This document shows positions 11,614-34,742 of a stretch of DNA of 64,000 bases, one piece after another; position 1 is the first letter of the stretch; every line of letters starts with the position of its first letter. A program made the translations under genes and the position numbers. The notes below the pieces were generated by a model that was not told the origin of the DNA, made no database searches, and saw only the letters and a list, made by a program, of their open reading frames with translations. Source of the stretch: an uncultured Gammaproteobacteria bacterium (GTDB lineage: Bacteria > Patescibacteriota > Patescibacteriia > SBBC01 > CAIJZX01); contig CAYNGY010000002.1 of assembly GCA_964397195.1 (NCBI GenBank), forward strand, positions 116,012-180,011, read 5' to 3'.

Positions 11614-11616
11614 GCT

Positions 11617-11997: not shown

Positions 11998-12452
11998 AAA
12001 CGATGCTCGGCCAACCGGCGCCGGACTTTACTCTCAACGATCAGGAGGGGAATGTTGTGTCGTTGGCACATTTTCACGGTCAGCACCCGGTCCTCTTGGT
12101 TTTTTATCCCGGCGATGATACGCCCGGGTGTACCGTACAACTGTGTGCAATTCGGGACTCTTGGTCGGCGTTTCAGGCGTATCATGTGGCGGTCTACGGG
12201 ATTAATCCGGGAAATGCTGAGTCGCATACAACATTTTGGCGTCATCATGGCTTAAAAACGCCGCTGCTCGTTGATACCGATGCGGTCGTGACTCGGGCCT
12301 ACGGCGCGATGAAGAAGTTTTTTCGAACGGAGATTGTTAACCGGACGGTGGTGTTGATCGACCGGGACGGTATGATTCGCGCGTATTGGCGGGGGATGCC
12401 CTCGACCGAAACAATCCTCGCCGCGATTCGTGAGTTGCCTGCCCATGTCTGA
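11994..12452 (+). CDS. bcp: thiol peroxidase/peroxiredoxin, Bcp type (AhpC/TSA family)
   Basis: APDFTLNDQEGNVVSLAHFHGQHPVLLVFYPGDDTPGCT, with the peroxidatic Cys in the TPGCT motif. Confidence 0.85.
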   Translation: MKTMLGQPAPDFTLNDQEGNVVSLAHFHGQHPVLLVFYPGDDTPGCTVQLCAIRDSWSAFQAYHVAVYGINPGNAESHTTFWRHHGLKTPLLVDTDAVVTRAYGAMKKFFRTEIVNRTVVLIDRDGMIRAYWRGMPSTETILAAIRELPAHV

Positions 12453-13179
12453 GTTTCAGATTCGGGATCTAGCGGTACGGGTCGGCGAGAAGCCGATTCT
12501 GCGTGGAGTGACGCTTGATGTTCGCCCGGGGGAAGTCCATGCCCTGATGGGGCCGAATGGATCCGGGAAGTCGACGCTAGCGGCGACGCTGACGGGCCAT
12601 CCGGGCTATACCGTGACCGGCGGGTCGGCGGCAATTGATGGACACGACCTCTTGGCGATGACGCCCGATGCGCGTTCGCGGGCCGGAATTTTTTTGTCAT
12701 TTCAGTATCCCCTCGAGATTCCGGGATTACGATACGGACAGTTCTTGCATGCTGCGCTACAGGCTCATCGCGGGACGGACTGGTCGATGCAACAATCGTA
12801 TGCGCTGATTGCCGAGCGGCTAAAACTGCTCGGACTTGATGACGCGTTGCTCGAGCGGTCGTTGAATGAAGGATTCTCTGGTGGTGAGAAAAAACGAGCC
12901 GAGATGTTACAACTGGCGGTTCTCGAGCCGGACTGGTGCATTCTTGATGAGACGGATTCGGGATTAGATATCGATGCTCTCAAGATTGTGGCGAGCAGTA
13001 TTAATGCGTTGCGGTCATCCGATCGAGGCTGGCTGATCATTACCCATTATCGACGTTTACTCGATTTGGTACGGCCCGACCGAGTTTCCGTTATGACTGA
13101 TGGGAAAATTGTGCGAACCGGTGGTCCGGAATTAGTGGCTGATTTGGAACAACATGGATATGCGTCGGCGCGTGAATAA
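12445..13179 (+). CDS. sufC: Fe-S cluster assembly ATPase SufC
   Basis: Walker A GPNGSGKST, ABC signature FSGGEKKR, Walker B ILDETDSGLD. The start was moved to the ATG at 12445 (MSEFQIRDL). Confidence 0.9.
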   Translation: MSEFQIRDLAVRVGEKPILRGVTLDVRPGEVHALMGPNGSGKSTLAATLTGHPGYTVTGGSAAIDGHDLLAMTPDARSRAGIFLSFQYPLEIPGLRYGQFLHAALQAHRGTDWSMQQSYALIAERLKLLGLDDALLERSLNEGFSGGEKKRAEMLQLAVLEPDWCILDETDSGLDIDALKIVASSINALRSSDRGWLIITHYRRLLDLVRPDRVSVMTDGKIVRTGGPELVADLEQHGYASARE

Positions 13180-13269
13180 CTACCACCTCCTTTCGCCAGT
13201 TGGCGAAAGACCCTTCCTTGGCATCCCCGCGCGAGCGGGGAAAGGAGGGGATGTGCAGGAGCCGATCGC

Positions 13270-14676
13270 ATGAGCCTGCCTCTCCCAGCGGCGCTGGCAA
13301 CCGATCGGTATCAGTACGGGTTCGCCATGCCGGATTCGTCGATTCTGACCTCGGGACGAGGGTTAACCGACGCGACGATTAAGAATATTTCGGCGTGGAA
13401 GAAAGAACCGGCCTGGATGACTGAACAGCGACTGAAAGCCCACGCGGTGTTTTTGGCCAAGCCCATGCCGCCGTGGGGTGCGGATCTGTCCGGGTTACCG
13501 TTTGAGGATCTGACATATTATTTGCGTCCGGCGGAGGCGGTGGCGCGTTCGTGGGATGAGGTGCCGTCGGATATTCGATCGACGTACGATCGGATTGGTG
13601 TACCGGAAGCGGAAAAAAAGTATTTGGCGGGCGTCGGCGCACAGTATGATAGTGAGGTGATCTATCACTCCATCCAGGACATCTTAAAAAAACAGGGCGT
13701 CATATTTACCGATATGGATACGGCTCTGCGCGAGTATCCGGAGATTGTGCAGCAGTATTTTGGTACGCTTATCCCGGCAGCGGATAATAAATTTTCTGCA
13801 CTGAACTCCGCGGTTTGGTCCGGCGGGTCGTTTGTCTATGTGCCGGCCGGAGTCCATGTTGATTTGCCGCTCCAAGCTTATTTTCGGATCAACGCGCGCT
13901 CGATGGGACAGTTTGAACGGACACTGATTGTCGCCGAACCTGGAAGCTCCGTCCACTATGTAGAAGGGTGTACCGCGCCGATTTACTCAACGGCGTCGTT
14001 GCATGCGGCAGTGGTGGAAATATTTGTGAAGCCTGGCGCGAAGGTGCGGTATACGACCATTCAAAATTGGTCGAAGGATGTCTACAATTTAGTCACCAAG
14101 CGGGCGCAGGTGGGGGAAGAGGGTGTGATGGAATGGATTGACGGGAATTTGGGTTCGCGGGTGACCATGAAATATCCGAGCGTTTATCTAGTTGGACGGA
14201 AGGCGCATGGTGAAGTGCTGTCGTTGGCCATGGCCGGAGCGGATCAGCATCAGGACGCGGGCGGGAAGGCGATTCATGTCGCACCGGAAACATCGTCGAT
14301 CATTACCTCAAAATCGGTGTCTCGGAATGGCGGCCGAACGTCGTACCGCGGGCTCGTCCACATTGCCCCGACGGCCCATGACTCGAAATCGAGCGTCAAG
14401 TGTGATGCCCTGCTCATGGACGATCGATCACGATCGGATACGTACCCAACGATGAAAGTTCGGGCCAAGCGAGTCACCCTTGGTCATGAAGCCTCGGTCT
14501 CAAAAGTCGGGGAGGAGCAGTTGTTTTATATGCGTTCGCGCGGATTTGACGAAGCGGCGGCGACGGGGCTGATTGTTGGTGGATTTTTGGATCCGATCGT
14601 TCGAGAGCTTCCCTTTGAATATGCCGTTGAGTTAAATAAATTGATTTCATTAGAAATGGAAGGGAGTGTGGGATGA
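13270..14676 (+). CDS. sufB: Fe-S cluster assembly protein SufB
   Basis: 468 aa with the conserved SufB/D core (GxxVxxxxxEI..., HxAxxxxIHxA region). Confidence 0.85.
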   Translation: MSLPLPAALATDRYQYGFAMPDSSILTSGRGLTDATIKNISAWKKEPAWMTEQRLKAHAVFLAKPMPPWGADLSGLPFEDLTYYLRPAEAVARSWDEVPSDIRSTYDRIGVPEAEKKYLAGVGAQYDSEVIYHSIQDILKKQGVIFTDMDTALREYPEIVQQYFGTLIPAADNKFSALNSAVWSGGSFVYVPAGVHVDLPLQAYFRINARSMGQFERTLIVAEPGSSVHYVEGCTAPIYSTASLHAAVVEIFVKPGAKVRYTTIQNWSKDVYNLVTKRAQVGEEGVMEWIDGNLGSRVTMKYPSVYLVGRKAHGEVLSLAMAGADQHQDAGGKAIHVAPETSSIITSKSVSRNGGRTSYRGLVHIAPTAHDSKSSVKCDALLMDDRSRSDTYPTMKVRAKRVTLGHEASVSKVGEEQLFYMRSRGFDEAAATGLIVGGFLDPIVRELPFEYAVELNKLISLEMEGSVG

Positions 14677-15182
14677 CGAGACCCGGAGACAAAGACTGGT
14701 TACCCTACGATGAATATTTACGTCGGGCAGCGCGCAAGCGATGTTCGGCGGGGGCGATTTTTTTGAACGAGGCTGGGGAGATGTTGCTCGTTAAACCGGG
14801 GTACAAAGAGGGTTGGACTATCCCTGGCGGTGCCGTTGATACGCAGGAATCGCCTCGCAATGCTTGTGTCCGTGAAGTGGCCGAGGAACTGGGTCTAAAT
14901 ATCCCACTGCCGGAATTTATCGCGGTTATTCATGTGCCTCGACCGGAGAAAAATGACGAGGTGCTCCATTTTATGTTTTTTGGTGGCACGCTTTCATCTC
15001 AACAAATTCATGAGATAAAAATTCAGCCGAGTGAATTAGATGAATATCGATTCGTACCCATCGATGAAGTCGGCCAGTATGCGAATAAAAACTTCACACA
15101 GGTTGTTCCACAACTAATGCAAGCCATAGAAGGACACCGACCGGTATTCATCGACGAACCTGGGAGAACGCAAGCATCATGA
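14673..15182 (+). CDS. NUDIX hydrolase
   Basis: Nudix box GGAVDTQESPRNACVREVAEELGL (Gx5Ex7REVxEExG). Confidence 0.8.
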   Translation: MTRPGDKDWLPYDEYLRRAARKRCSAGAIFLNEAGEMLLVKPGYKEGWTIPGGAVDTQESPRNACVREVAEELGLNIPLPEFIAVIHVPRPEKNDEVLHFMFFGGTLSSQQIHEIKIQPSELDEYRFVPIDEVGQYANKNFTQVVPQLMQAIEGHRPVFIDEPGRTQAS

Positions 15183-15814
15183 GTAACGACGAACTTCGCC
15201 AAACCTACAATCGGATTGCGGATGACTGGCATGCCGATCATCTGAAAGACACGTGGTGGGCTGAGGGCACAGAAGCGTTTCTTACGTTCCTCAAAAAGGG
15301 CGACCACATTCTTGATCTTGGTTGTGCTGGCGGCGTGAAATCCAAGTTTTTGATCGACCATGGTTTTCGTGTGGTTGGATCTGACCTCTCAGAAGAGATG
15401 ATTCGGATTGCGAAAAGCTACGAGCCACGAGGTACGTTCATGCAGATGGATATACTACAAACTAGTTCACTGAAAGAACGGTTTGATGGGGTGTTTATTC
15501 AGGCCGTACTCCTTCATATCCCAAAGATCCAAATTCCTACAGCCGTACATCAGGCTGTGAGCGTTTTAAAACCGGGCGGAATATTCTACGTTGCGGTAAA
15601 AGAGCAGCGTGTGGGACAGCCGGCCGAGGAGATAAAAATGGAACATGATTATGGATATCCCTACCAACGTTTCTTTAGTTATTTTACGACCGGAGAAATT
15701 CGCGGACATATCGAGCAGTCCGGATGTCGCGTCCTGCGCGAGATTCGGACCGTTTCAGGCAAGACGGTATGGATTCAATTGATTGCCCAGAGAATGACGA
15801 CGCCGATTGTATGA
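15179..15814 (+). CDS. class I SAM-dependent methyltransferase
   Basis: Motif I ILDLGCAGG. Confidence 0.75.
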   Translation: MSNDELRQTYNRIADDWHADHLKDTWWAEGTEAFLTFLKKGDHILDLGCAGGVKSKFLIDHGFRVVGSDLSEEMIRIAKSYEPRGTFMQMDILQTSSLKERFDGVFIQAVLLHIPKIQIPTAVHQAVSVLKPGGIFYVAVKEQRVGQPAEEIKMEHDYGYPYQRFFSYFTTGEIRGHIEQSGCRVLREIRTVSGKTVWIQLIAQRMTTPIV

Positions 15815-16278
15815 ATATCCGAGCCGCCACTATAGCCGATCATCCCGCGCTCTATGCGCTCGGTTTGGCGACGCCTGAATTTCAGGTTGGGGCTGAGGGT
15901 CCGTTTATGGAGCCGGACGAGTTTTTGTCGGCCATCGAAAATCCTCATGGAACGTTTCTCTTAGCGGAGGATGGCCAGGTTATCCTTGGGTTTGTCTATG
16001 CCAGCCGACAAGATGTCGAGCGTGGTCCGCGAACATCCTGGGCGTGCCTTGTGTACCTAGTCGTCGAGTCAGCCCATCGGAAACGCGGAGTGGCGCGGAA
16101 ATTATATACGGCTTGCATTAACGACCTTCGCACGCACGGCGTGCGCTCCGTGTACGCGTGGGCAAACACCGAGAGTGACGGTAGTATTGTTTCCTTCTTG
16201 AAGAAGGAGGGGTATGCCGCTGGACATCGGTACGTTTGGATGGACAAAGATATTGGGATTCAACAAGATGCCTCCTAA
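15811..16278 (+). CDS. GNAT family N-acetyltransferase
   Basis: The ATG at 15811 overlaps the upstream stop (ATGA). Acetyl-CoA-binding motif HRKRGVARKLY. Confidence 0.7.
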   Translation: MNIRAATIADHPALYALGLATPEFQVGAEGPFMEPDEFLSAIENPHGTFLLAEDGQVILGFVYASRQDVERGPRTSWACLVYLVVESAHRKRGVARKLYTACINDLRTHGVRSVYAWANTESDGSIVSFLKKEGYAAGHRYVWMDKDIGIQQDAS

Positions 16279-16873
16279 TCATTTCAAGACCGTTAATGTG
16301 TCGCAGGATACCCAGATTCAGGACAATCTCCATGAATCGGATATTCGTTATACCGTCGCCGCCGGCGTTTGTTTCCAGCTCTGGCTCGACGCGCTGGGCG
16401 GACAATCTGAACCACGGGTGCGCGAGATCGTTTTAGCGGAGCCTGGGGCGCGGGCCGAGATTCGTGGCGTCTTCTCCGGGCGAGCAAAAGAGTCGTTACG
16501 TCTCCAGCTTGATACGATCCACCAAGCGCCGCATACCACTGCCGCGACCGATTTTCGGGCGGTACTGCGCGATGCGGCGGTGCTCGTGTTTCGTGGAATG
16601 ATCAAGATTGCACCCGGGGCGCAGGGGAGCCATGACTTTCTGCGGCAAGACTCGTTGATCTTGAGCGATGAAGCAAAGGCGGATTCTATTCCGGGGCTTG
16701 AAATTGAGGCCAATGATGTCAAAGCGTCCCATGGCGCGACCGCGAAACCCCTTGATCCAGAAATGATTCATTATGTGCAGAGTCGCGGAGTCCCCGCATC
16801 GGTCGCCGAAACGATGCTGATCGAATCATTTCTCCAACCTGTACGTTTCGCGAAAAGTATCGTAGGATCGTAA
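16268..16873 (+). CDS. sufD: short SufD-like protein (SufBD C-terminal core only)
   Basis: GLEIEANDVKASHGATAKPLDPEMIHYVQSRG is the conserved SufB/D C-terminal motif. At about 200 aa it is half the usual SufD length. The track start 16214 is an alternative. Confidence 0.6.
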   Translation: MPPNHFKTVNVSQDTQIQDNLHESDIRYTVAAGVCFQLWLDALGGQSEPRVREIVLAEPGARAEIRGVFSGRAKESLRLQLDTIHQAPHTTAATDFRAVLRDAAVLVFRGMIKIAPGAQGSHDFLRQDSLILSDEAKADSIPGLEIEANDVKASHGATAKPLDPEMIHYVQSRGVPASVAETMLIESFLQPVRFAKSIVGS

Positions 16874-16876
16874 TAT

Positions 16877-17389
16877 ATGGCACAGATTCGTGTACGTTCA
16901 GCTCGCGTTGGGGATACAGCCGATGTCGTTACGCTTTTTCAGGAGGCAGTGGTGTCTATTCCCGATTATTCGCCAAAATTACGGCGGCTCTTTTTTCGTA
17001 AATATCGGTCCGAGATCGTCACTAAACGGATTCGTGACCGGGCGGCATACTGTTTGCTGGCGGTGGATGGAAAAACCGTGGTTGGGTTTATCTGGGGGAT
17101 GCCGATGCGGGCCACAGAAGACGGCGTCTACTGGATGAACTGGGTTGGTGTTCATGCCGCTTACCGTCGGCGTGGGGTGGCGCGGCGAATGATGAAGGCG
17201 CTCGAGGCGGAGCTGCGGAAACATCAATTCCACAAACTTTGGTTTAATATTGATCCAAAGAATTCTCGCTCAGCGAAGACGTTTGCCGCTCTCGGATACC
17301 ACCAGATTGCCCGTGTGAAGCATCATTGGTACGGTCATGATGCGTTGCTGTGGGAAAAAGATTTGATGCCAACTAAGAAGGGGATGTAG
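16877..17389 (+). CDS. GNAT family N-acetyltransferase
   Basis: WVGVHAAYRRRGVARRMM, the Q/RxxGxG/A acetyl-CoA motif. Confidence 0.75.
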   Translation: MAQIRVRSARVGDTADVVTLFQEAVVSIPDYSPKLRRLFFRKYRSEIVTKRIRDRAAYCLLAVDGKTVVGFIWGMPMRATEDGVYWMNWVGVHAAYRRRGVARRMMKALEAELRKHQFHKLWFNIDPKNSRSAKTFAALGYHQIARVKHHWYGHDALLWEKDLMPTKKGM

Positions 17390-17393
17390 CAGT

Positions 17394-18593
17394 ATGAAAC
17401 ATGTTCGTTCGGATTTCCCGATTCTCGCGGCTAATGCTGGTCTTCGATATCTTGACTCCACCGCTTCCAGCTTGAAGCCGACGGTCGTGATTGAAGCTGA
17501 GGCTGGTTTTTATCGCCAGCATGGAGTGAATGTGCATCGCGGCGTGTACGCGTTATCACAATCGGCGACCGAAAGCTATGAATCGTCACGCGAAGTTATT
17601 CGTGGCTTTATCCATGCTCGCTCGACGGCGGAGATTATTTTTACCCGCAATACAACTGAAGCCATCAATCTGGTGGCCCGAACATTCGGGATGACGCTTC
17701 AAGCGGGGGACGTCGTTGTCCTGAGCGAGATGGAACACCATTCCAATATTGTACCGTGGCAGCAACTTCGGGATGAGCGGGGGATTGAACTGCGATGGAT
17801 TCCCGTGACCGACGCTGGAGATCTCGATCTCAGTGCCTTAGATGCGCTGCTCGTCGGGGCAAAACTCGTGGCGGTGACGCAGATGTCAAATGTGCTCGGA
17901 GTGGTCAACGATGTTAAGGAAATTGCGGCCAAGGCCCACGCGCATGGTGCGCTCATGCTTGTCGATGGTGCACAATCTGTTCCACATATGCCGGTGGATG
18001 TTCAGGATCTCGATTGTGATTGGTTAGTATTCTCCGGGCATAAAATGTGTGGCCCGATGGGAATCGGTGTGCTCTATGGACGGCAGTCCGTGCTGGAAGC
18101 CATGCCGCCGTTTCTGCGAGGTGGCGATATGATTCTTTCGGTCACGAAAGAGGCGGCGACATGGAATGAGTTGCCGTGGAAGTTCGAAGCCGGAACGCCG
18201 AATGCCGCTGGAGCTGTTGCATTAGGGGTGGCCACACAGTATTTACAGAAAATTGGCATGCAAACAATTTGGGAACACGACCTGGCTTTAGCGGCGCACG
18301 GGCGAGAGGTGTTGACGGCTATCTCCGGCCTACGGTTGCTCGGTGCCGACGCCCTATCACCACGCGGGGCGATATTCTCGTTTGATCTGAGCGGCGCTCA
18401 TCCGCATGATATCGGGTCACTCTTGGATGAAAAACAGATCGCGGTTCGTGCTGGCCATCACTGTGCCCAGCCGCTTCACGCACGATTCGGGCTCGGAGCG
18501 ACGACACGGGCGAGTGGGTATCTCTATACAACGGAAGACGAACTCACCGCATTGGCGAGCGAACTTGATTCCATCCGGACTCTGTTCTCATGA
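17394..18593 (+). CDS. sufS: cysteine desulfurase SufS (class II aminotransferase)
   Basis: PLP-lysine region LVFSGHKMCGPMGIGVLYG and the C-terminal RAGHHCAQPL with the active-site Cys. Confidence 0.9.
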   Translation: MKHVRSDFPILAANAGLRYLDSTASSLKPTVVIEAEAGFYRQHGVNVHRGVYALSQSATESYESSREVIRGFIHARSTAEIIFTRNTTEAINLVARTFGMTLQAGDVVVLSEMEHHSNIVPWQQLRDERGIELRWIPVTDAGDLDLSALDALLVGAKLVAVTQMSNVLGVVNDVKEIAAKAHAHGALMLVDGAQSVPHMPVDVQDLDCDWLVFSGHKMCGPMGIGVLYGRQSVLEAMPPFLRGGDMILSVTKEAATWNELPWKFEAGTPNAAGAVALGVATQYLQKIGMQTIWEHDLALAAHGREVLTAISGLRLLGADALSPRGAIFSFDLSGAHPHDIGSLLDEKQIAVRAGHHCAQPLHARFGLGATTRASGYLYTTEDELTALASELDSIRTLFS

Positions 18594-18964
18594 ATTCGAA
18601 TATGTATCAACAGCAAATTCTCGATCACGCGCGTCATCCGCATAACTTTGGCATCCTCGAGGGTGCGACGGCTACGGCGGAGAAAGTGAATCCGCTGTGT
18701 GGCGATGAGGTGACGTTTTTTTTGGAGTTTGGTGATGATCAACGCGTCACACAGGCCAAGTTTTCCGGTCGCGGTTGTGCTATTTCGCAAGCGGCGGCGT
18801 CAATGCTCACCGATGCCCTGATCGGGAAGAGCCGCGAAGAAATTTCTGCGCTTGGACCGGATGAAATGAAAGCGCTACTCGGAGTTGATGTAAACCCGGC
18901 GCGGATCACCTGTGCGACACTAGGACTCCAGGCGGCACAACGCGCCGTGACCGTGCCCGAGTAG
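18590..18964 (+). CDS. sufU: SufU/IscU-like sulfur acceptor/scaffold
   Basis: HARHPHNFG...NPLCGDEV...SGRGCAISQAAAS, the three conserved Cys of SufU. Confidence 0.85.
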   Translation: MNSNMYQQQILDHARHPHNFGILEGATATAEKVNPLCGDEVTFFLEFGDDQRVTQAKFSGRGCAISQAAASMLTDALIGKSREEISALGPDEMKALLGVDVNPARITCATLGLQAAQRAVTVPE

Positions 18965-18974
18965 CATAAAAAGG

Positions 18975-19010
18975 GGCCCCGACTCGCGTGAGCGAGCCGG
19001 AGCTTTTTTG
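18975..19010. terminator. bidirectional rho-independent terminator
   Basis: Hairpin CCGACTCGC-GTGA-GCGAGCCGG followed by TTTTTT on the plus strand and preceded by AAAAA, between the convergent genes sufU and 19014(-). Confidence 0.7.
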
Positions 19011-19013
19011 GCT

Positions 19014-19676
19014 TCAGAGGCTGACCGATTCGATCGGTGCGCCACCGAAGTGGGTGATGATCCGATTGGCCTCATCGGTGAAGGGCGGTTCGAATCGGAA
19101 CCGCTGACGCATGACGAGTTCGTACCAGGTGCGGGGCAGGCCGCGTGATTCACGGTCGTCGTCAGCCGCCCGGAGCCGATCGTAGTGGACGAGCGGGTGC
19201 GGCTGGACCCAGACGATTGAGGTGTCGAAATCGCGCTGATGCGCCTGTTTGGTGATGGCCAGACGTGACCAGCGATCGAGATTGCAGGCGTCGACGACGA
19301 AGGCGATATCGCGTCGAATCAGCTCGGTACAAAGTTGCCCGCGGACCCAGTGCGTCAGGAACTGGCGCTTCCAGAACGCATGACTATGGATGGCGGTGTT
19401 TTCTTGCAGGTCCGGGTAGAGGGCGTTCAGCTCGGCGTGGAGCACATCAGTCTCGATACAGACGAGATCTTGCAGGTCGGGGTGACTTCGCCGGAAGTGT
19501 GACTTCCCAGCACAGCTGAATCCGACGAGCAGGACCACGCGCTTGGTGAAGGCGGATGTGGTGGCCGCCTGAACCCGTGGCCCGATGATGTGCGTCGAAA
19601 GGAAGGCGCGCTCTGGTGCCTGACGGAGCAACATTCGTGCCGCGACAAATCCCTTTGCCATCTGCCAACTGAACAT
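19014..19676 (-). CDS. P-loop kinase (AAA_33/zeta-toxin-like NTP-binding) protein, chromosomal paralog
   Basis: Walker A VGFSCAGKSHF and the motifs DACNL, IVWVQ and RFEPP, all shared with the cassette gene 32813..33442(-). Confidence 0.6.
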   Translation of the reverse strand: MFSWQMAKGFVAARMLLRQAPERAFLSTHIIGPRVQAATTSAFTKRVVLLVGFSCAGKSHFRRSHPDLQDLVCIETDVLHAELNALYPDLQENTAIHSHAFWKRQFLTHWVRGQLCTELIRRDIAFVVDACNLDRWSRLAITKQAHQRDFDTSIVWVQPHPLVHYDRLRAADDDRESRGLPRTWYELVMRQRFRFEPPFTDEANRIITHFGGAPIESVSL

Positions 19677-19776
19677 AAAGGTGCCTCCCCGTGCGCAACA
19701 ATTACTCCTGTGACCGAGCGCAGAGACTAGCCGATGGTTGTCTTCCTGTCAACCCCCGATGGGTGACGATGGATTT

Positions 19777-20361
19777 CTAGGGGAGGAGACGGAGGACTGA
19801 CCACCAGGCCGAGATATAGTCGGCGCGGCGATTTTGATGTTTTACGTAGTAGGCGTGTTCCCAGACGTCGAGGCCGATCAGGGGTACGTGCTGGTCTAGA
19901 ATCGGGGAATCTTGATTGGGTGTGGCACGCAGCGCAAGCTTTCCGGCTTGATCACGGACGAGCCACATCCATCCACTGCCAAAAACCGCCGCGGCGCCGT
20001 CGCTAAACTTCTTCTTAAAGTCATCAAGTGAGCCAAACGTACTTGTAATTTCGGCAATCAAGCTCGCATCGATCTTTTTTTCCGGACCGATGATATTCCA
20101 GAAGAAAGAGTGGTTGGCATGCCCCCCGCCGTGATTTCGGATTGCGAGGCGGACTGTGTCAGGAATATCGAGCGTTGCTAGCTGCCCGAGGAGCGATCCG
20201 AGCTCAAGCGACTGCAAGTGCGGGTACGGTTCAAGCGCGGCATTCAGCTTGTCTACGTATGTCTGATGATGTTTGGTATGGTGAATACGCATCGTTTCCG
20301 TATCAATATACGGTTCGAGCGCGTCGTAGTCGTATCCGAGGGCGGGGAGGGTGTAGGACAT
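19777..20361 (-). CDS. sodA: Fe/Mn superoxide dismutase
   Basis: YTLPALGYDYDALEPYID, HHTKHHQTYV and DVWEHAYY. The start was trimmed to the ATG at 20361 (MSYTLP); the track ORF extends to 20466. Confidence 0.9.
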   Translation of the reverse strand: MSYTLPALGYDYDALEPYIDTETMRIHHTKHHQTYVDKLNAALEPYPHLQSLELGSLLGQLATLDIPDTVRLAIRNHGGGHANHSFFWNIIGPEKKIDASLIAEITSTFGSLDDFKKKFSDGAAAVFGSGWMWLVRDQAGKLALRATPNQDSPILDQHVPLIGLDVWEHAYYVKHQNRRADYISAWWSVLRLLP

Positions 20362-20450: not shown

Positions 20451-22277
20451 ATGAACGAGTTTTCAAACGTTGTGATCACCTCAAAAACCCAACAAATATC
20501 TCTCGCCTTCGGTGCCCTCGCGGTTATAGTGACCGTTAGTGTGCTTGGTATTGGTCGCGTTGCAGAGGCGCAATCCACAACCTCGCCGAAACTCTATATT
20601 TACCAGGGCGTCATCTCGATCAGTCCGGCCGCCGGGCAGGTAATGGAGTTGGGGGCAAATGGGACGACGATTGCGACGAATGGAAATATTGCGCTTCGAC
20701 CGTCGAATGGGACGGTGACCTTCGGGCCGGCAAATGCCATTGATGAGGGCGGCGAGCTTGATCTTCAAGGAGCCTCGTCGTCGTATCCAACGTGGGGGAT
20801 CGATTCGTACGTTGATTTGTTCGCCACTCCCGATGTTGTCTCATACCTACGTTTCTATCACGGCGCAAGTGTTCCATTGAAGGTGGGAAATGACGGAAAA
20901 ACGAGTATCAATGGCCAACTGTGCTTTGGGGCCGGGCTTGGGGACTGTATCTCAAACTGGTCGTCGGTTGGTGGAGGTGTTGACACCTTGTCGTCACTCT
21001 TGAGCCCGATAAATAGCGGTAATACCTCGATGACCCCAGTTGTTCTTGGGCAAGGTAGTGGGCCGGTGACCGCGACGGCCCGTTTTGATATCAGTACCAC
21101 GTCGAGTGCCTTTAATGCCTATCCGTCCCTCAACGCGGTTTCGGCACACAGTTCAGTGGTTAGCGATCCGAAAGGTGCGGCCATCCGGGCGGAGAACCCA
21201 AATGGAGGGTGGGCGGGATACTTTAGCGGCCGGGTGGGGGTGTTTCAGCCGGGTGCTTCTGATCCCGGATTTGCCGACGCGACGGTAGTTCGACTCTCGG
21301 GAGATCATACGTTTCAATCATCGCAAGGCGTGTTGAATGTTACGAACTTGCGCCCGAGTTCCTACGCGGCGCGTTTTGTTGGCGCGGTCGAAATTACCGG
21401 GAGCGGTGGTCGGGTGCCTGGCGCTGCGTCAACCGGTGTGGACGCCGATGCCGCGCTCGACATATTTAATTCGACATCGACGGAAGTATTTCGAGCGACG
21501 AGCCCTTCGCTCAACGGGGCGGCCATTTGGGCCCAAGCGGGGAATCCTTACACAAATGGCATGGTCACCTCAGCGTTCTATGGCCAGGGTGGCGCTTGGC
21601 CAAGCCCCGCCTCGGATCAGGTCGGCCTGCAATACGCCGGGTTCTTCACGGGTGCAAATGTGGTTGAAGGCGTTCTTTCTATCCAGCCGTATGATGCGTC
21701 TGACCGATGGGGATTATTAATACAGGGGATGACCCGAAGAGCGAATGTCGCTTTTAATGGTGCTAAACAAACGGCTGAGATGCAGGTGTGTGAGCTGAGT
21801 AGCAATACCTGTTATGGAAAGTACGTTGCCACGATTGGTCATGGGACGCGTGGTGGGGACCGGGCGACAACACAACTCTGTTACGAAAGTGGCGGAGCGG
21901 TGACCTGCCGAGCGATGTATGTGAGCCAGTCGGGTTGTGTTGGGACCGGGTCGGTCGGACTTAAATTGGGAAGTAGCTCGTCGGCGGCCCGGAGTTATTT
22001 CGTGACGCCAGTCCCACAAACTCCTTCTTGCCGCGGTGCGGAGTTGGGTGCACCGTACCAAGAGTATGTGGCGAATGCCGGTGATTCCCCGTATCGGGCG
22101 GCGCCGACAGCTCAGCAATTTTGTGTGTCGGGGACGCCGACGCTCGTCGCGCCAAATTATGCCCAAGATCAGCTCCATGGCGGCTGTTACCTCGTCTCAA
22201 CTTCTCCGCCGGCGTTCCAAGCGTACGCGGTGACTCTACCAACTACTGAGTTAGTACAAACGCTTGAAATCCGTTAA
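20451..22277 (+). CDS. secreted protein, tandem paralog family member A (unrecognised family)
   Basis: The track start at 20442 is TTG; the ATG is at 20451. Signal peptide, then the module YQGVISISPAAGQVMELGANGTTIATNG, an internal ENPNGGWAGYFSG, and a C-terminal TQLCYESGGAVTC Cys motif. Confidence 0.6.
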   Translation: MNEFSNVVITSKTQQISLAFGALAVIVTVSVLGIGRVAEAQSTTSPKLYIYQGVISISPAAGQVMELGANGTTIATNGNIALRPSNGTVTFGPANAIDEGGELDLQGASSSYPTWGIDSYVDLFATPDVVSYLRFYHGASVPLKVGNDGKTSINGQLCFGAGLGDCISNWSSVGGGVDTLSSLLSPINSGNTSMTPVVLGQGSGPVTATARFDISTTSSAFNAYPSLNAVSAHSSVVSDPKGAAIRAENPNGGWAGYFSGRVGVFQPGASDPGFADATVVRLSGDHTFQSSQGVLNVTNLRPSSYAARFVGAVEITGSGGRVPGAASTGVDADAALDIFNSTSTEVFRATSPSLNGAAIWAQAGNPYTNGMVTSAFYGQGGAWPSPASDQVGLQYAGFFTGANVVEGVLSIQPYDASDRWGLLIQGMTRRANVAFNGAKQTAEMQVCELSSNTCYGKYVATIGHGTRGGDRATTQLCYESGGAVTCRAMYVSQSGCVGTGSVGLKLGSSSSAARSYFVTPVPQTPSCRGAELGAPYQEYVANAGDSPYRAAPTAQQFCVSGTPTLVAPNYAQDQLHGGCYLVSTSPPAFQAYAVTLPTTELVQTLEIR

Positions 22278-22280
22278 TTC

Positions 22281-23732
22281 ATGAAACCCGTCTTTATCAC
22301 AACTCAGAACCGGATGCGTCGACAGCTGATGTGGTTGTTGGCGTTGGTTTTGAGCAGTGTGGGGTGGATGCTCTGGCCACGGACAGTCGTCTTAGCTGGT
22401 CCGGTGACTGCGGCGCCGACAAAAGTGACCGTTTATCAAGGAGTAGCGGCAATTTCGCCGGTAGCCGGCCAAATTATGGAGCTTGGAAATAATGGCACGG
22501 ATATCGCTACAAATAACGGCACATTAAATTTTATTCCCGGGACTAACAATGGAGTGCTCATCACCCCAGCCGGCACGTCTCCGGCCGGTGGGAAAATAAC
22601 TCTGCTTCCGCCATCGAGCACGGTGTATCAGGAATGGCAGATTAAGCTCAACGGCAATTACCTGCAATTTTATACACCATCAGGCACAGAGCGTTTTACA
22701 CTTGGTAAGGACGGGGATGCGCATATTATGGGCGGCTTATGCTTGACGGATCGATGCATTACCGGTTGGTCGCAGGTGGGTGGCGGTACCGGCGCATTGC
22801 AAACACTAGATGGCGTTCTTACCCAGGGGAACAGCTCGAATCATCCTATTGTCATACACCAGTTGGCTGGTGCTTCAACGGTGTATGAAAACGCCAGTGG
22901 CCTGCTTGACGCTTCAACTGATCCGGCCAGCGTCCCGTATATTGATGCCGGTACAAATTTGAATGTCTTTGCCTCGGGTATTTTTACGTCACATACACAA
23001 CCGATGATGGCCCAAGGCGGATCGGCACTGTACGCCGAAAATCCATCGGGGTATGCCGGCTATTTTAGTGGCTCACTCGGCATTCAAACAACAAACGGCG
23101 GGTCAAATTTACTCGGCTCATTCTATGCACTTGCTGCTGATGGCGCGGTTGACCCGACGCGTGGGTATATCTTGGAAGTCGTCGATGCGGTCAACGGATC
23201 GGCGGCGCGTTTTACCGGATCAGTGCGCTTAGGCGGTAATAACGTCTCCTTCCAACCGGTGCTGGATGTCGTCAGTACGGCCACAACCGGGAATACGGTC
23301 AAAAGTTACGGCGCTGAGGAAGAGGGGCCAGCGGTTTTTGGGACGGCTGGGTTTGCCGGGAATACTGGTGGACCGTTACCAACCGGCGCAGTCTCTTCAG
23401 CCATTCGCGGCAACGCGGGGACCGGAAATTCTTATGGCGCTTTTTTCCATGGCCATACGCGGGTTGACGGGGTGTTACGGGTGTACTCGACTACGGGTGG
23501 GGAAGGGATTCGTTTGAATGGAAGTGCGCGGCTTAAGACACAAACCGGTTTGTGGGTGTATCCGGTTGGCTCGGATATCGCCGCCGGTCGGTATGTCTAC
23601 ACCGTGGCCGCCGTGGGGACACCGGCGCGGGGGACGGGGACTCAGCTGTGTTATGAAGTGGAAATCTCCTATAACACCACTTGTGTTTCAATGTACACGG
23701 CGGGTGGGGCCCTTAGTTATGAATTACGGTAG
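22281..23732 (+). CDS. secreted protein, tandem paralog family member B
   Basis: Signal peptide (VLA/GP), then KVTVYQGVAAISPVAGQIMELGNNGTDIATNNG, ENPSGYAGYFSG, and a C-terminal TQLCYEVEISYNTTCVSMYTAGGALSYELR. Confidence 0.6.
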   Translation: MKPVFITTQNRMRRQLMWLLALVLSSVGWMLWPRTVVLAGPVTAAPTKVTVYQGVAAISPVAGQIMELGNNGTDIATNNGTLNFIPGTNNGVLITPAGTSPAGGKITLLPPSSTVYQEWQIKLNGNYLQFYTPSGTERFTLGKDGDAHIMGGLCLTDRCITGWSQVGGGTGALQTLDGVLTQGNSSNHPIVIHQLAGASTVYENASGLLDASTDPASVPYIDAGTNLNVFASGIFTSHTQPMMAQGGSALYAENPSGYAGYFSGSLGIQTTNGGSNLLGSFYALAADGAVDPTRGYILEVVDAVNGSAARFTGSVRLGGNNVSFQPVLDVVSTATTGNTVKSYGAEEEGPAVFGTAGFAGNTGGPLPTGAVSSAIRGNAGTGNSYGAFFHGHTRVDGVLRVYSTTGGEGIRLNGSARLKTQTGLWVYPVGSDIAAGRYVYTVAAVGTPARGTGTQLCYEVEISYNTTCVSMYTAGGALSYELR

Positions 23733-23733
23733 C

Positions 23734-25269
23734 ATGGCGATACGCATGAAACATCTCGCGCGCTCAGCCCTCGGCATCGGTATGGTGTTTGCGGTCGTCT
23801 GGTTGGCGAGCATGCAACCGGTGTCGGCCGGCCCGATCACCGGGACACCGGGAAGCCCACCGTATCCAAAACTTACCGTGTACCAAGGGATCGTTGCCAT
23901 CACGCCCGGGGCATCGACGTCCTTAAAACTTGGAAAGAATGGCAACACCATCCAGTCAAACGGTGCGATTGTTCTTAACCCAACCAATGGCACAGTCAGT
24001 GTGACGCCGCAGAATAATCAGGCCGAGGGTGCCGAGCTGGTGTTTACGCCGCCGAGCAGCGCGACGGTCTATTCGACATGGCATCTTGATAACTATGTGG
24101 CCGGGCTACCGACCACACCGGTGAGTAAAGCGCGAATTTTCAGTGACGGTGTCGAGCGTCTCAATGTGACTGAAGCGGGGGATCTTGAGGTGCGTGGTCA
24201 GCTGTGTCTGAACTCGTCCGGATGCCACGCTCGTTTTGATGAACTCGGTGGGACGGGAAATCAAAATCTCGATCAGGTGCTGGCCGGGGGGAACATGGCG
24301 AATACGTGGATGTGGATCGGATCTCAAAACTATACGCCGTACTACGCGCAACCGTATTATCAAAGTTCGTGGTTCATGGTCGGCCAAGTCTTAGCCGAAG
24401 TCGACGTTGCCTACGGGACGTCCTTGGGCGAGGACTGGTCACGCCTGAACGGTATCTCCGCGAAGGCCAACCATCCGATGGGTCTGGCGCCATCCGGCAC
24501 GCCGTATGGTTCAGCGTTGTACGGAGAAGACAATGTTGGTTGGGCGGGGTATATAAAGGGCGTGACCGGCATCTTCGGTCCCGGATCCGGCAGCCCAACA
24601 TTTAGTGCCGACTCATTGGTGCGGATGGCGGGGTCAGTGCCGACGGGTACCGGGTATGTACTTGATGTATATAATGCGAATGTTCGCGGACAGGCGGCGA
24701 CGTTTTCGGGGAGCGTAAAATTAACCGGGACCGGCGCAGTGGGGGCTGAACCGGAAGCTGAGTTGGTGGTGCACAATAGTCGACCGGAACGACGTGGGAC
24801 GACGATTCGAGTGGCGGCGGCATATGAAAGCAGTTCGGTGGTTGGGTACGCGCAAAATACTTCTTCGGGATCACCGACGTACGGTCTGTATGGTATCATG
24901 GGCACCGCGACCGGTGGGGCGACCTCCTATGCGGCCTGGCTCCATGGGAATGCACAGATTACTAACCAGGGCGGAGTGCTGGGGCAGGTCAATGTACGTC
25001 CATATGGCGGCTCAACGCCGTGGGGAATTCAATTCGGAGCCTCAGGACGCATCAAGTTGGCGACTGAAACGTGGGTCTGTCCGGTGAATAGCGACGACTG
25101 TTCGGGATACGGTAAATATATTCGCACGACGTGTGGGCCGACGGGCGCCGAGTGCACCGCGGCGAATTACACTGATCGGGCCAATATGAAATATTGCTAT
25201 GACCATACGGGGGCCAATGTCTGTCAGTTGGTGTATAGCGGTGGTGTCCAGGCGTTTGAATTGCGTTAG
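23734..25269 (+). CDS. secreted protein, tandem paralog family member C
   Basis: The start was moved to the ATG at 23734 (MAIRMKHLARS...), since the track ORF overlaps the previous gene. KLTVYQGIVAITPGASTSLKLGKNGNTIQSNG, GWAGYIKG, and a C-terminal KYCYDHTGANVCQLVYSGGVQAFELR. Confidence 0.6.
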   Translation: MAIRMKHLARSALGIGMVFAVVWLASMQPVSAGPITGTPGSPPYPKLTVYQGIVAITPGASTSLKLGKNGNTIQSNGAIVLNPTNGTVSVTPQNNQAEGAELVFTPPSSATVYSTWHLDNYVAGLPTTPVSKARIFSDGVERLNVTEAGDLEVRGQLCLNSSGCHARFDELGGTGNQNLDQVLAGGNMANTWMWIGSQNYTPYYAQPYYQSSWFMVGQVLAEVDVAYGTSLGEDWSRLNGISAKANHPMGLAPSGTPYGSALYGEDNVGWAGYIKGVTGIFGPGSGSPTFSADSLVRMAGSVPTGTGYVLDVYNANVRGQAATFSGSVKLTGTGAVGAEPEAELVVHNSRPERRGTTIRVAAAYESSSVVGYAQNTSSGSPTYGLYGIMGTATGGATSYAAWLHGNAQITNQGGVLGQVNVRPYGGSTPWGIQFGASGRIKLATETWVCPVNSDDCSGYGKYIRTTCGPTGAECTAANYTDRANMKYCYDHTGANVCQLVYSGGVQAFELR

Positions 25270-25278: not shown

Positions 25279-25881
25279 ATGATTTTGCTTGAAGCGGAAC
25301 ATGACCGCCGATTTTCGGTTTCGCGGCTGAAGTGGCCGATGATTGTCCATGGTCGGGCTGGGGCCGGCGCCAGTATGGCGACAGTCGTGATGGCGGCTGA
25401 ACTGATTCGAAGCGGCGAGTCGGTTGTCTGGATGTGTGCTAAGCCGACTGCAATCCGGACATTACGTGATGAGCTCGGCCTTGAGACCAAGGCGCCGATT
25501 CGCGCGCCGACGGTTTCGGCGCAACAGGAGTCACTTGCAGATGCGCAGTTGGTGACGATGCACGGAAAATCTTCGTTTCTGGAAACGTCGTTGCGCGCTC
25601 TTCCAGACTGGCAATCACGGGTAGTGATTGTAAAGAATATTGAGGATATCTTGAGTCCAACCTTGTGGTCGATGATTGCCGATCATCCGCGGCTCATCCT
25701 TTCCGGTGATGTTGGGAGTATGCCGTGGCCGCTCCCGCATCACGGCTGGCAGTCCGCACTGGCATTTTCGGCTTGGCCACCGCCGTGGTCTCACGACGAT
25801 CCAATCCGCCCGCCTTTCATCGGGTATTTGCGAATTGGACGATCACACCCGACGGCTGTGATTATCGCTGAATCACGATGA
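25279..25881 (+). CDS. hypothetical protein with a degenerate P-loop-like motif
   Basis: 200 aa. GRAGAGAS resembles a Walker A lacking the Lys; otherwise no recognisable domain. Confidence 0.35.
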   Translation: MILLEAEHDRRFSVSRLKWPMIVHGRAGAGASMATVVMAAELIRSGESVVWMCAKPTAIRTLRDELGLETKAPIRAPTVSAQQESLADAQLVTMHGKSSFLETSLRALPDWQSRVVIVKNIEDILSPTLWSMIADHPRLILSGDVGSMPWPLPHHGWQSALAFSAWPPPWSHDDPIRPPFIGYLRIGRSHPTAVIIAESR

Positions 25882-31933: not shown

Positions 31934-32010
31934 GGCTAACGTTTGCGGCTCATGCGCGGCGGACCCTGAGCGAAGTCGAAGAGGGAGTGGCGGATAGACG
32001 CTGTTAGGTA
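31934..32010. repeat. attC-like site A (77 bp imperfect palindrome; ends GGCTAAC...GTTAGGT)
   Basis: CTAACGTTTGCGGCTCATGCGCGGCGGACCCTGAGCGAAGTCGAAGAGGGAGTGGCGGATAGACGCTGTTAGG, with internal inverted symmetry. It lies immediately downstream of the hydrolase stop at 32022. Confidence 0.55.
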
Positions 32011-32021
32011 GCGTTGTCCGT

Positions 32022-32603
32022 CTATGACTTCAGACATTCCTCTAGCAGTTCGGGAAATTCGACAGTGCCTAAGTCACTAAGACAAAAATGTCCTTTATTG
32101 GCAAACTCTTGATAGGTCGCCTGATCAATGTTTTCTCGAATGAGATCAATTGTTTTTAGAACACTTTCATCATCATTTTTTGAGTAAAACACAGAAACAC
32201 CGCCGGTTCGTGAAACGAGATCTCGATCTATTGAAAAGTTAAAGAAATCCGCTGTGTCAGAGTGAGGGTTATTGGAAGGGTTGGTCCAGGGTGCAACGAG
32301 AACCACCTTACCGACGCGAAGATCTTTATGTTCGCTGAGGTATCGGAGTAAAAAACCACCACCACAGCTATGACCGACTAGCATTGTTTCGGGGGTCAAT
32401 TCAAAGCGCTCCAATTCTTTCTTCCATAGAGCATAGCGCGGTTGCCATGGTGTTGGAATTTCCAGTGCGACAGTAAAAATATCCTTGAGCATCAGTTGCT
32501 TCGAAAGCCAAGGAAACCAATGATCATTGCTATTTGTTGGACGTACCGGATCGTAGTATTCTTCTCGATCAGGTCGTCCGGGAATTAGTATCGTGTTTCT
32601 CAT
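32022..32603 (-). CDS. alpha/beta hydrolase of the YdeN/RBBP9-like serine hydrolase type
   Basis: ILIPGRPD...NDHWFPWL at the N-terminus and the nucleophile motif LVGHSCGGG. The start was trimmed to the ATG at 32603. Confidence 0.6.
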   Translation of the reverse strand: MRNTILIPGRPDREEYYDPVRPTNSNDHWFPWLSKQLMLKDIFTVALEIPTPWQPRYALWKKELERFELTPETMLVGHSCGGGFLLRYLSEHKDLRVGKVVLVAPWTNPSNNPHSDTADFFNFSIDRDLVSRTGGVSVFYSKNDDESVLKTIDLIRENIDQATYQEFANKGHFCLSDLGTVEFPELLEECLKS

Positions 32604-32812
32604 AGACTTGAATAATATTGGTGGCCGGTCGATTTCACACAACGTCCGCGGATATGAGAAGTTGCTGCTTCGTTTCGGCGGTACAATTCTACCACCGCCG
32701 GGGCGAAGCAGCAATTTGCACGTAGGAAATTGGGTTGGGTTTCTTCTTGTGACATCTTGATGTTTAGACAACACCCGACAGTTTCCTGCCGGGTGCTTTG
32801 GAGCATTCTTGT

Positions 32813-33442
32813 TTATGCGCTGGTCTGAATGAGCAGGGAATCCGCCTCTTCCGGCCTCGGCTCTTCGAACCGTGGCTGCTGGATCTGCCGATAGAGATCC
32901 ACCCAGGCGGCCGGACGCCCACGCTGACGGAGCTGATCATCGGCTCGTTGTAGCCGCTCGAGCAACCTGACTTCTTGGCATTGGATCCAGACGATTTCCG
33001 TCTGGTATCCATATTGCTTGGCTAGCTTGAGCCGCTCGACTCGTTCCTTGCGCACGAGGTTGCAGGAATCATTGACGACATTCACGCCTTGTTGGAAGGC
33101 GGCGGCTAGAACAACTTGCCGTACCTTTTGCGTCAGCCACTGCCGTGGCCAGTAGGCTGGTCCAGTGACCGTCCTGTCGTCGTTGAGCCAGGGAAAAGCA
33201 GCGTTTAGTCGAACGTGAATCTGATCAGTGCTGAGTTGGAAGAATCGTGCCCTCACCGAATCGTGTTCCAGCCAGTAGTTCTTGCCTGACTTGGAATACC
33301 CGACCATCGCTACGAACTTTCGTTCTCGCGGGTACTCATCCCATGCCTTGATGAAACCGGAAACAACGGTCTTCAGCCGAGACCTATTTTCAGGGACGAG
33401 TAGCTTGATCTCCGTCAGCAAAACGGCAAAGAGCTTTCGCAT
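32813..33442 (-). CDS. P-loop kinase (AAA_33/zeta-toxin-like), cassette-borne paralog of 19014..19676
   Basis: Walker A VGYSKSGKNYW plus DSCNL, IVWIQ and RFEEP, the same motif order as the chromosomal copy. Confidence 0.6.
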   Translation of the reverse strand: MRKLFAVLLTEIKLLVPENRSRLKTVVSGFIKAWDEYPRERKFVAMVGYSKSGKNYWLEHDSVRARFFQLSTDQIHVRLNAAFPWLNDDRTVTGPAYWPRQWLTQKVRQVVLAAAFQQGVNVVNDSCNLVRKERVERLKLAKQYGYQTEIVWIQCQEVRLLERLQRADDQLRQRGRPAAWVDLYRQIQQPRFEEPRPEEADSLLIQTSA

Positions 33443-33542
33443 GTCGACCTCTTTCGTGGGTACGTATACAGCGTGCCGTGCTACTCTACACTTTTTTTTA
33501 AAAAAGTCAAGTCCCTTTGCATGAACGGCGGTGTGACTAGGG

Positions 33543-33592
33543 GTAACGAAAAACCAACCCCGATTTCCTCCGTCTCCTATCCGCTGTTAGAC
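33543..33592. repeat. degenerate attC-like remnant (GGTAACG...GCTGTTAGAC)
   Basis: A short element with TAACG at the left and CCGCTGTTAGAC at the right, directly abutting attC-like site B. This could be an empty cassette. Confidence 0.25.
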
Positions 33593-33615
33593 GATGCGGT
33601 GCGCAGCGGAGTTTC

Positions 33616-33692
33616 GACTAACGTTTGCGTCTCATCCGCGGCGGACCCTGAGCGAAGTCGAAGAGGCAGTGGCGGATAGACGCTGTTAAGTG
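33616..33692. repeat. attC-like site B (77 bp; CGACTAACGTTTGCG...GCTGTTAAGT)
   Basis: Nearly identical to repeat A over CTAACGTTTGCG.CTCAT.CGCGGCGGACCCTGAGCGAAGTCGAAGAGG.AGTGGCGGATAGACGCTGTTA. Confidence 0.55.
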
Positions 33693-33809
33693 ATGTAAAC
33701 TTCTATCTTCGTTTTTCTGTACAAATTATGTTTATTGTTTAGGAAAGTATTATTTCTGTTTCAGGAAAAGTGAGAGTGGCTGGGAGTAAATCGTTTTTGT
33801 CATTATTCC

Positions 33810-34728: not shown

Positions 34729-34742
34729 CGTAATAATAGGTG

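Follow-up and report, generated by a model that had tools for sequence, protein, structure and literature searches.

What kind of proteins do three unannotated genes encode when they lie head to tail on one strand of a chromosome, and what might such proteins do for the cell? This question is raised by genes A, B, and C, which are located in a 64,000-nucleotide (nt) stretch of contig CAYNGY010000002.1 (positions 116,012 to 180,011 of the forward strand), hereafter called the window. Our analysis indicates that the three genes encode members of a protein family that is new and unannotated, although its general type, that of tandem, fast-evolving secreted surface proteins, is a familiar one. The family is defined by a cleavage site of the AxA type followed by a conserved N-terminal module (N-module), a cysteine hairpin, AGYF.G units, and a C-terminal domain ending in ELR, and these features are found in A, B, and C alike. 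We see about an even chance that A, B, and C are modular, fast-evolving, non-enzymatic surface fiber or adhesin proteins, a function that we infer from their sequences. A preliminary description of the locus had proposed diversifying surface proteins, and this proposal remains plausible.

The open reading frames (ORFs) are where the preliminary description had placed them, in tandem on the plus strand, and their paralogy is genuine. BLASTP aligned A with B at 32% identity over 476 columns (E = 2e-38, where E is the expectation value), and B with C at 31 to 32% identity over 524 columns, which is near full length (E = 8e-40). A three-way alignment gave a mean pairwise identity of 35% across 426 ungapped columns. 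All three proteins are rich in G, A, S, T, N, and V and poor in K, E, and D. A compositional artifact as the source of the shared motifs is ruled out by the above E-values and by the conservation of the motifs across genomes. Some of the earlier measurements needed revision. The length proposed for B was right, whereas the 611 amino acids (aa) proposed for A are obtained only from an upstream TTG, and the 512 aa proposed for C agree with neither of its candidate starts (Table 1). Similarly, the spacers are not 3 to 4 nt long; we measured 3 nt between A and B and 1 nt between B and C, the latter becoming a 14-nt overlap if C starts at ATG 23719. Because of these short spacers, A-B-C most likely form a single transcription unit. 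A consensus scan for promoters and terminators around A-B-C gave counts no higher than in shuffled sequence, and the guanine-plus-cytosine (GC) content at A-B-C is similar to that of the surroundings.

No meaningful DNA-level repeats were found between A, B, and C. The nonsynonymous divergence (dN) of the paralog pairs was 0.76 to 0.82, while the synonymous divergence (dS) was undefined for two pairs and 2.4 for the third, i.e., saturated, so that dN/dS is uninformative. Since similarity at the DNA level is gone and dS is saturated, the duplications are old. Furthermore, A, B, and C are mutual best matches, with 135 to 157 bits among themselves versus no more than 90 bits to the genes at the same site in other genomes. 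Therefore, the triplet arose within the lineage of the window, and on this sequence evidence it reads as an expansion specific to that lineage.

Table 1. Positions of genes A, B, and C and of the parts of their products in the window
Feature	Position	Strand	Remarks
Gene A	20451..22277	+	608 aa from ATG 20451; 611 aa only from TTG 20442; public gene call, 608 aa; complete C-terminal domain kept
Gene B	22281..23732	+	483 aa; exact protein P0001 in public collection, a singleton cluster; C-terminal domain truncated
Gene C	23734..25269	+	511 aa from ATG 23734; 516 aa from ATG 23719 (start in public gene call); C-terminal domain truncated
A, predicted Sec signal peptide, aa 1-40	20451..20570	+	site AEA↓Q; read from sequence
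B, predicted signal peptide, aa 1-39	22281..22397	+	site VLA↓GPVTA; sequence, and AlphaFold2 (AF2) helix at aa 9-31, predicted local distance difference test score (pLDDT) ~84
C, predicted signal peptide, aa 1-32	23734..23829	+	site VSA↓GPITG; read from sequence
A, N-module (KLYIYQGVISISP..MELGANGT..LRPSNGTV)	20571..20744	+	GP(I/V)T start lost
B, N-module (GPVTAAPTKVTVYQGV..MELGNNGTDIA..)	22398..22577	+	A3 N-module hidden Markov model (HMM) match, E = 2.6e-10
C, N-module (GPITGTPGSPPYPKLTVYQGI..LKLGKNGN..)	23830..24024	+	A3 N-module HMM match, E = 9.7e-15
A, beta-meander equivalent	20745-20912	+	counterpart of B module
B, beta-meander module (GGKITL..W.I..YLQFY..GTERFTLG..)	22578..22730	+	five strands, pLDDT 82-92 (AF2)
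A, disulfide hairpin GQLCFGAGLGDCISNWSSVGGG (C158, C166)	20913..20978	+	Cys columns invariant among paralogs
B, disulfide hairpin GGLCLTDRCITGWSQVGGG (C154, C159)	22731..22787	+	Cys columns invariant among paralogs
C, disulfide hairpin GQLCLNSSGCHARFDELGG (C158, C164)	24196..24252	+	Cys columns invariant among paralogs
B, core of three units x-A-(G/A)-(Y/F/R)-F-x-G-x-(V/L)-x-(I/L)	23019..23471	+	aa 247-270, 304-321, 375-397 (regular expression)
A, full C-terminal ELR domain, 162 aa, 8 Cys	21789..22274	+	end LEIR; full form
B, shortened C-terminal domain, 57 aa, 2 Cys	23559..23729	+	end YELR; alignment
C, shortened C-terminal domain, 63 aa, 6 Cys	25078..25266	+	end FELR; alignment

The signal peptides that had been proposed for all three proteins are well formed, each with a basic n-region, a hydrophobic stretch of ~17 to 20 residues, and a small-x-small cleavage site. 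Across the family, the site reads AxA↓GP(I/V)T(G/N), with Ala at -1 in 63 of 74 members and A, V, or S at -3 in 68 of the 74, a pattern that fits cleavage by signal peptidase I. The cysteine counts are even (10 in A, 4 in B, and 8 in C), and the pairs align between the paralogs. No membrane anchor, LPXTG signal, or known wall-binding domain was found in A, B, or C by sequence, Pfam, or NCBIfam, and there is no C-terminal hydrophobic segment. The mature N terminus GP(I/V)T(G/N) matches a sortase-like x-P-x-T-G shape in 49 of 74 relatives. In the window, this shape is present in B (aa 40 to 44, 22398-22412) and in C (aa 33 to 37, 23830-23844), in both cases directly after the AxA site, and it has been lost in A.

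Two classes of exported proteins were considered and rejected from these termini. The family has no class III prepilin signal: the hydrophobic stretch precedes the AxA site and no G↓F..E motif is seen. The mature proteins begin with GP(I/V)T(G/N) or QSTT, which are polar or Gly/Pro-rich starts unlike those of type IV pilins. Hence the position of the hydrophobic stretch and the mature start both speak against a type IV pilin. A classical LPXTG substrate was rejected in turn, as the C termini (..TLEIR, ..SYELR, and ..AFELR) have no hydrophobic tail and the x-P-x-T-G shape is N-terminal.

The proteins share one modular layout. In the numbering of B, the signal peptide (aa 1 to 39) is followed by the N-module (aa 40 to 99), a beta-meander (aa 100 to 150), and the disulfide hairpin (aa 151 to 169). 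Then come a short motif (L..VL..GN.S), a variable region, three A(G/A)(Y/F)F.G.V.(I/L) units, and the C-terminal domain. The N-module has the pattern GP(I/V)T.., KL.VYQGV.S.., (M/L)E(I/L)G..G.DI.., ..RP. An HMM of this module (A3), independent in that it was built without A, B, and C, matched A at E = 9e-10 along with B and C (Table 1). The N-module is also the most conserved block of the paralog alignment, with a windowed identity of 0.59 as compared to 0.20 between units 2 and 3. Thus, the contrast that had been drawn between conserved motifs and highly divergent intervening regions is real, but it is only moderate.

The hairpin follows the family pattern G.LC...C..W..GGG. The three aromatic-Gly motifs in the middle of the proteins proved to be a single recurring unit, in register among the paralogs, with pairwise hhalign E-values of 1.3e-5, 8e-4, and 6e-3; the unit centers equivalent to those of B are aa 255, 306, and 396 in A and aa 271, 321, and 400 in C. 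The shared motifs listed in the preliminary description are present, although C departs from several of them: MELG is replaced by LKLG and GYFSG by GYIKG, and the Cys hairpin is not followed by 'WS'. The C-terminal domain begins with VC.V.S..C.G.Y and terminates with (Y/F)E(L/I)R at the very last residue. Ends of the ELR type are real, but the (Y/A)ELR wording proposed earlier suits only B among the actual ends (Table 1). The boundary motif of this domain was located in 15 further ELR-type representatives, and 14 of them have the full form (141 to 178 aa with 6 to 10 Cys). About 100 residues of the domain have been lost from B and C, which have retained the terminal ELR.

Searches against known families bear out the view that the proteins have no recognizable domain. 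Pfam and NCBIfam gave zero families for A, B, and C at E ≤ 1, and over 86 relatives no Pfam family was matched by more than one member at E ≤ 0.01. The best PHROGs match (E = 0.066, 20 residues only) is noise, and a search of PDB sequences yielded nothing at E ≤ 10 with either a 3-sequence or a 40-sequence profile. By tblastn, no match at E ≤ 0.01 was obtained over 50,697 GenBank phage records, and a scan of IMG/VR viral contigs gave no relative. A word-indexed protein search, tried three times, recovered no more than the query or one or two fragments each time, this method being ill-suited to a rare low-complexity family. A full-text literature search for the family motifs yielded no relevant paper. 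In A, B, and C, Pfam matched none of the features of autotransporters or beta-helix adhesins (PATR, pectate-lyase-like, haemagglutinin repeats, translocator domain). Likewise, Pfam found no SLH or other wall-binding domain in A, B, C, or the 86 relatives.

Structure prediction gave a beta-rich picture of low confidence. AF2 reached a pLDDT of 30 for A with a 3-sequence alignment, which is unusable, and 57.5 for B with 40 sequences, where only aa 100 to 160 are confident. Outside the signal peptide, these low-confidence models are all-beta save for a few short helical turns, and neither the models nor Foldseek showed a beta-helix or fiber fold. With the model of B, Foldseek matches to the PDB had E-values of 0.14 or higher, with chain 8onf_B at E = 0.49. 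Against BFVD, the best E was 6e-4, with template-modeling (TM) scores of 0.07 to 0.16, and the list consisted mostly of phage tail-fiber-type proteins. We read the BFVD matches as reflecting a similar local beta and compositional character, and not a common fold.

How widely is the family distributed? A profile of A, B, and C was searched against 1.84 billion representative proteins and gave 91 matches at E ≤ 1e-3, including A, B, and C themselves (88 further proteins). Thirty-four matches lay below 1e-10 and seven below 1e-30, three of these seven being A, B, and C, which score 722 to 773 bits against their own profile. The N-module is common to ~80 of the 91 matches. The ELR end is seen in 20 of the 91 representatives, and most of the others carry a Cys-rich ..C.C. 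tail. The few named relatives are all called "hypothetical protein" and come from Patescibacteria or Candidatus Kerfeldbacteria, bar one single-module protein from candidate division TA06. A genome scan with the N-module identified seven loci: two in Kerfeldbacteria, two in Patescibacteria, one in a record named "bacterium", and two in records titled uncultured Gammaproteobacteria. The family is rare and lineage-restricted; to date, it has been encountered only among the ultra-small bacteria of the Patescibacteria/CPR, in Candidatus Kerfeldbacteria and their relatives.

The window genes occupy a conserved chromosomal site. In relatives, this suf-sod site has the order fur-ahpC-sufC-sufB-sufD-sufS-nifU, then the family, and then sodA (on the other strand), a CAP-domain protein, blaI, and blaR1. 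Gene number varies at this orthologous site. There is one copy each in loci L009/L010, L012, L016, and L019, two each in L004 and L011, at least two in L014, and three in the window. Whether gene number varies between related genomes was one of the checks put forward in the preliminary description. The neighbors are mostly 50 to 83% identical to their window counterparts (SufB 74 to 83%, SufS 57 to 64%, SodA 53 to 67%, CAP 42 to 44%, BlaR1 30 to 33%), as compared to only 26 to 35% for the A/B/C family. Thus, at this site the family diverges much faster than most of its neighbors. As judged by synteny and by this 50 to 83% identity of housekeeping proteins, the window can be assigned to the Patescibacteria/Kerfeldbacteria lineage of the related records.

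The window itself has sodA and an AAA_33 gene before the family array rather than after it. Because the relatives have the array directly after nifU, and sodA after the array, a local rearrangement went along with the expansion to a triplet. Two AAA_33 (kinase-like P-loop) genes are present in the window, at 19014-19676 and at 32813-33442, both on the minus strand; the first lies between nifU and the array, together with sodA. Directly downstream of C, a 200-aa ORF (25279-25881, plus strand) has no Pfam match, carries a degenerate Walker-A-like GRAGAGAS, and has a counterpart of 38% identity at the same position in L004.

A second setting of the family was found at eight loci that share one conserved cluster (L002, L003, L005, L006, L007, L008, L013, and L017). 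Where the contig reaches, the order at this pilus site is clpB, an M48 peptidase gene, and lemA on one strand, and famX, the family (1 to 3 copies), famX, famX, a gene for a giant protein (~1,450 to 1,985 aa where complete), and pilM on the opposite strand. Directly after the cluster and on the same strand, pilM is found in six of the eight loci, with pilN in L003, L005, and L017; only the L003 locus extends further, and there pilO, a small ORF, and pilB follow. In L003, this cluster, with which the type IV pilus operon begins, spans 5496-20161, and its non-pil genes are all unannotated. Pfam gave no match on the unknown proteins of the cluster, including the giant protein of L003. In L005 and L006, the flanking genes are 60 to 74% identical to the Kerfeldbacteria locus. 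These two records (CAYGGC010000005.1 and CAZFGG010000001.1) are titled 'uncultured Gammaproteobacteria', and their ClpB, M48, LemA, and PilM are 60 to 77% identical to those of a Kerfeldbacteria contig and lie in the same order. The Gammaproteobacteria label of L005 and L006 is, on this evidence, probably wrong.

FamX represents a second unknown secreted family with LCLNG..C..W hairpins and a C-terminal CGDG.C motif, in one case accompanied by an InlB-B-repeat-like Flg_new_2 domain. It shares with the A/B/C family the AGYF unit (unit 1; hhalign probability 91%, E = 1e-6) and the Cys hairpin (hhalign E = 8e-4). Other modules recur more widely. The beta-meander (profile positions ~87 to 164) matches proteins that have no N-module, e.g., from candidate division TA06, at E = 9e-8 to 1e-4, and the ELR domain is also found on a 1,245-aa Patescibacteria protein with a different N terminus (P0059). 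Short family members at the pilus loci carry a WHPGN.G.GSGLDA..DG motif whose sole phage matches are weak (E = 0.03 to 0.8) and lie mostly in tail-fiber or tail genes. This suggests a pool of fiber-type building blocks that would be common to unannotated surface proteins, a likeness at the level of motifs and not of family membership.

On the surface fiber or adhesin reading, the following sequence of events can be envisaged. A-B-C would be transcribed as a single unit, as the short spacers suggest. Each protein would leave the cytoplasm through Sec, and signal peptidase I would remove its signal peptide at the conserved AxA site. Outside the cell, it would adopt a beta-rich, disulfide-stabilized modular fold, as the paired cysteines and the all-beta prediction suggest. 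The conserved N-module may then hold the protein on a conserved partner of the cell envelope or of a surface apparatus. The fast-diverging middle and the Cys-rich C-terminal ELR domain would face outward and bind targets outside the cell, of which a host-cell surface would be the most plausible, since cultivated Patescibacteria are episymbionts, living attached to other microbes.

Two further observations favor this reading. The family is built from the same short units as famX, and in related genomes famX is encoded beside family members where a type IV pilus operon begins. Furthermore, the weak structural and motif matches, from Foldseek against BFVD and from the phage motif search, are nearly all to phage tail-fiber-type proteins. 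Other considerations weigh on the opposite side. The confidence of the AF2 models is low with 3 as well as with 40 sequences. In the window, the scan of ORFs placed no pilus gene near A, B, and C. Relaxed constraint, and not diversifying selection, could lie behind the fast divergence, dN/dS being unusable for telling the two apart, and no mechanism for retention of A, B, and C at the cell was identified.

Could the family instead serve the type IV pilus? The A/B/C family, famX, and the giant protein might together form a non-pilin tip or priming complex, or an envelope collar, with the window triplet as dispersed spare variants. The independent recurrence of the family in the same conserved cluster at eight loci, with pil genes next to it in most, favors such a role. 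Moreover, the gene order recalls the minor-pilin/PilY1 clusters of other bacteria. However, gene adjacency does not prove interaction, and the proteins have no class III signal, their hydrophobic stretch lying before the cleavage site without a G↓F..E motif. Furthermore, the family occupies the suf-sod site in at least 10 loci, among them the window, and the sequence within reach at these loci contains no pilus gene; the ORFs of the window that were scanned include none. We therefore consider a role as pilus accessory unlikely, with an appreciable chance nonetheless. A bolder proposal is that the family, famX, and the giant protein make up a new Sec-dependent, non-pilin surface filament or host-attachment apparatus. 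Its subunits may be polymerized or docked through GPITG...KL.VYQGV, and the triplet would supply exchangeable exposed variants. We regard this as quite unlikely.

The same N-terminal segment underlies another possibility, that A, B, and C are self-assembling pilus or fiber subunits. They might be joined by donor-strand exchange through the KL.VYQGV.S. strand, as in TasA and the archaeal bundling pili, or by a sortase, the tandem genes encoding major and minor subunits. Arrays of two to three paralogs of unequal lengths do recur, the mature N terminus and the very C terminus (..ELR) are both conserved, and GP(I/V)T(G/N) fits the sortase shape in two-thirds of the relatives, as counted above. 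In L009 and L010, the single orthologue is immediately preceded, on the same strand, by a sortase gene (PF04203; 9388-9939 and 749-1300, respectively). These two loci represent one organism, however, and neither the window nor the other loci yielded a sortase homologue. A sortase signal lies at the C terminus ahead of a membrane anchor, whereas A, B, and C end in ELR and are anchorless. As GP(I/V)T follows a canonical AxA site, it is explained more simply as the beginning of the mature chain. No gene for a chaperone, an usher, or a dedicated signal peptidase lies nearby, and an incomplete fold has no support from any structural model. Self-assembly of this kind is thus improbable.

A still lower probability attaches to S-layer or other structural cell-wall proteins that have no binding role. 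Patescibacteria do have S-layers, and A, B, and C are secreted, beta-rich, low in charge, and encoded at a conserved chromosomal position. Set against this are the variable copy number and the fast divergence at a syntenic site, as well as the Pfam search, which found no SLH or wall-binding domain. Conserved disulfides are, moreover, unusual for S-layer proteins. Finally, phage tail-fiber or receptor-binding genes left in the chromosome by a prophage would account for the mostly tail-fiber-like BFVD matches and for the GSGLDA..DG motif of the short members, with its sole phage matches in tail-fiber genes, yet we reject this scarcely credible origin, and with it the literal phage option offered in the preliminary description, because IMG/VR and GenBank phages hold no relatives, no PHROG match is better than 0.066, the GC content is like that of the surroundings, and the locus is chromosomal, flanked by housekeeping genes, and syntenic across genomes.

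Patescibacteria make up a large share of bacterial diversity, and their host-recognition molecules are mostly unknown outside the type IV pili of Saccharibacteria. Being secreted, fast-evolving, variable in copy number, devoid of any described domain, and often encoded at the head of a pilus operon, the A/B/C family is a tangible candidate for a role in attaching to hosts or in host specificity within one Patescibacteria lineage. Its reusable modules, namely the N-module, the EGGE beta-meander, the AGYF unit, the Cys hairpin, and the ELR domain, could seed new domain families. If the family proves to be an ordinary wall protein, the value of these findings would be limited to annotation.

Elsewhere in the window, one open frame of more than 2,900 aa runs from 55068 to 64000 on the plus strand and off the window end; it has seven PATR repeats and the look of a giant adhesin. 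An HTH_17/MerR match at aa 60 to 111 of this frame probably belongs to a separate upstream gene, and P/V-rich minus-strand 'ORFs' at 57 to 63.5 kb are antisense shadows of the frame. The region ~32000-36000 has a GC content of 42 to 48% versus ~55% elsewhere and contains a methyltransferase gene, the second AAA_33 kinase-like gene, a serine hydrolase gene, and a tRNA gene (35841-35914). This region may be an acquired island.

How do A, B, and C compare with systems already known? Single modules are shared with other unnamed proteins, such as MFA6198267.1 of Patescibacteria and MBI5806444.1 of TA06, which are assembled from GIGT..P, EGGE..W.ID..RF, AGYF.G.V, and LCL.G.C..W units. These proteins differ in having no family N-module and in the order and number of their modules, and they are equally uncharacterized. 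Minor-pilin/PilY1 clusters resemble the pilus-site arrangement, in which relatives belong to a block that encodes several secreted proteins together with a single very large one and immediately precedes pilM-pilN-pilO-pilB. In contrast to minor pilins, the family has neither a prepilin (class III) signal nor the pilin alpha-1 helix, and the window copies lie outside a pilus locus. With the sortase-assembled pili and LPXTG proteins of monoderm bacteria, the family shares tandem related genes for secreted subunits, a P-x-T-G pentapeptide, and, beside one orthologue, a sortase gene. The family pentapeptide is, however, N-terminal, just after the site of signal-peptidase cleavage; the C terminus carries no sorting signal, and the sortase gene is not a conserved part of the locus.

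The remaining comparison is with phage tail fibers and tail-fiber-like adhesins such as the Bdellovibrio fiber proteins (PDB 8onf). Unlike phage fibers, A, B, and C are secreted by Sec with a cleavable signal peptide, have disulfides, and are chromosomal; TM scores do not exceed 0.16, there is no Pfam or PHROG match, and the family is absent from viral collections. On the side of likeness are the weak BFVD matches, the placement of the sole phage matches of a relative's GSGLDA..DG motif on tail-fiber genes, and the match to 8onf_B. Both are modular, beta-rich, and rich in G, S, T, and N, and both occur in multiple diverged copies that combine a conserved N-terminal attachment part with a variable remainder.

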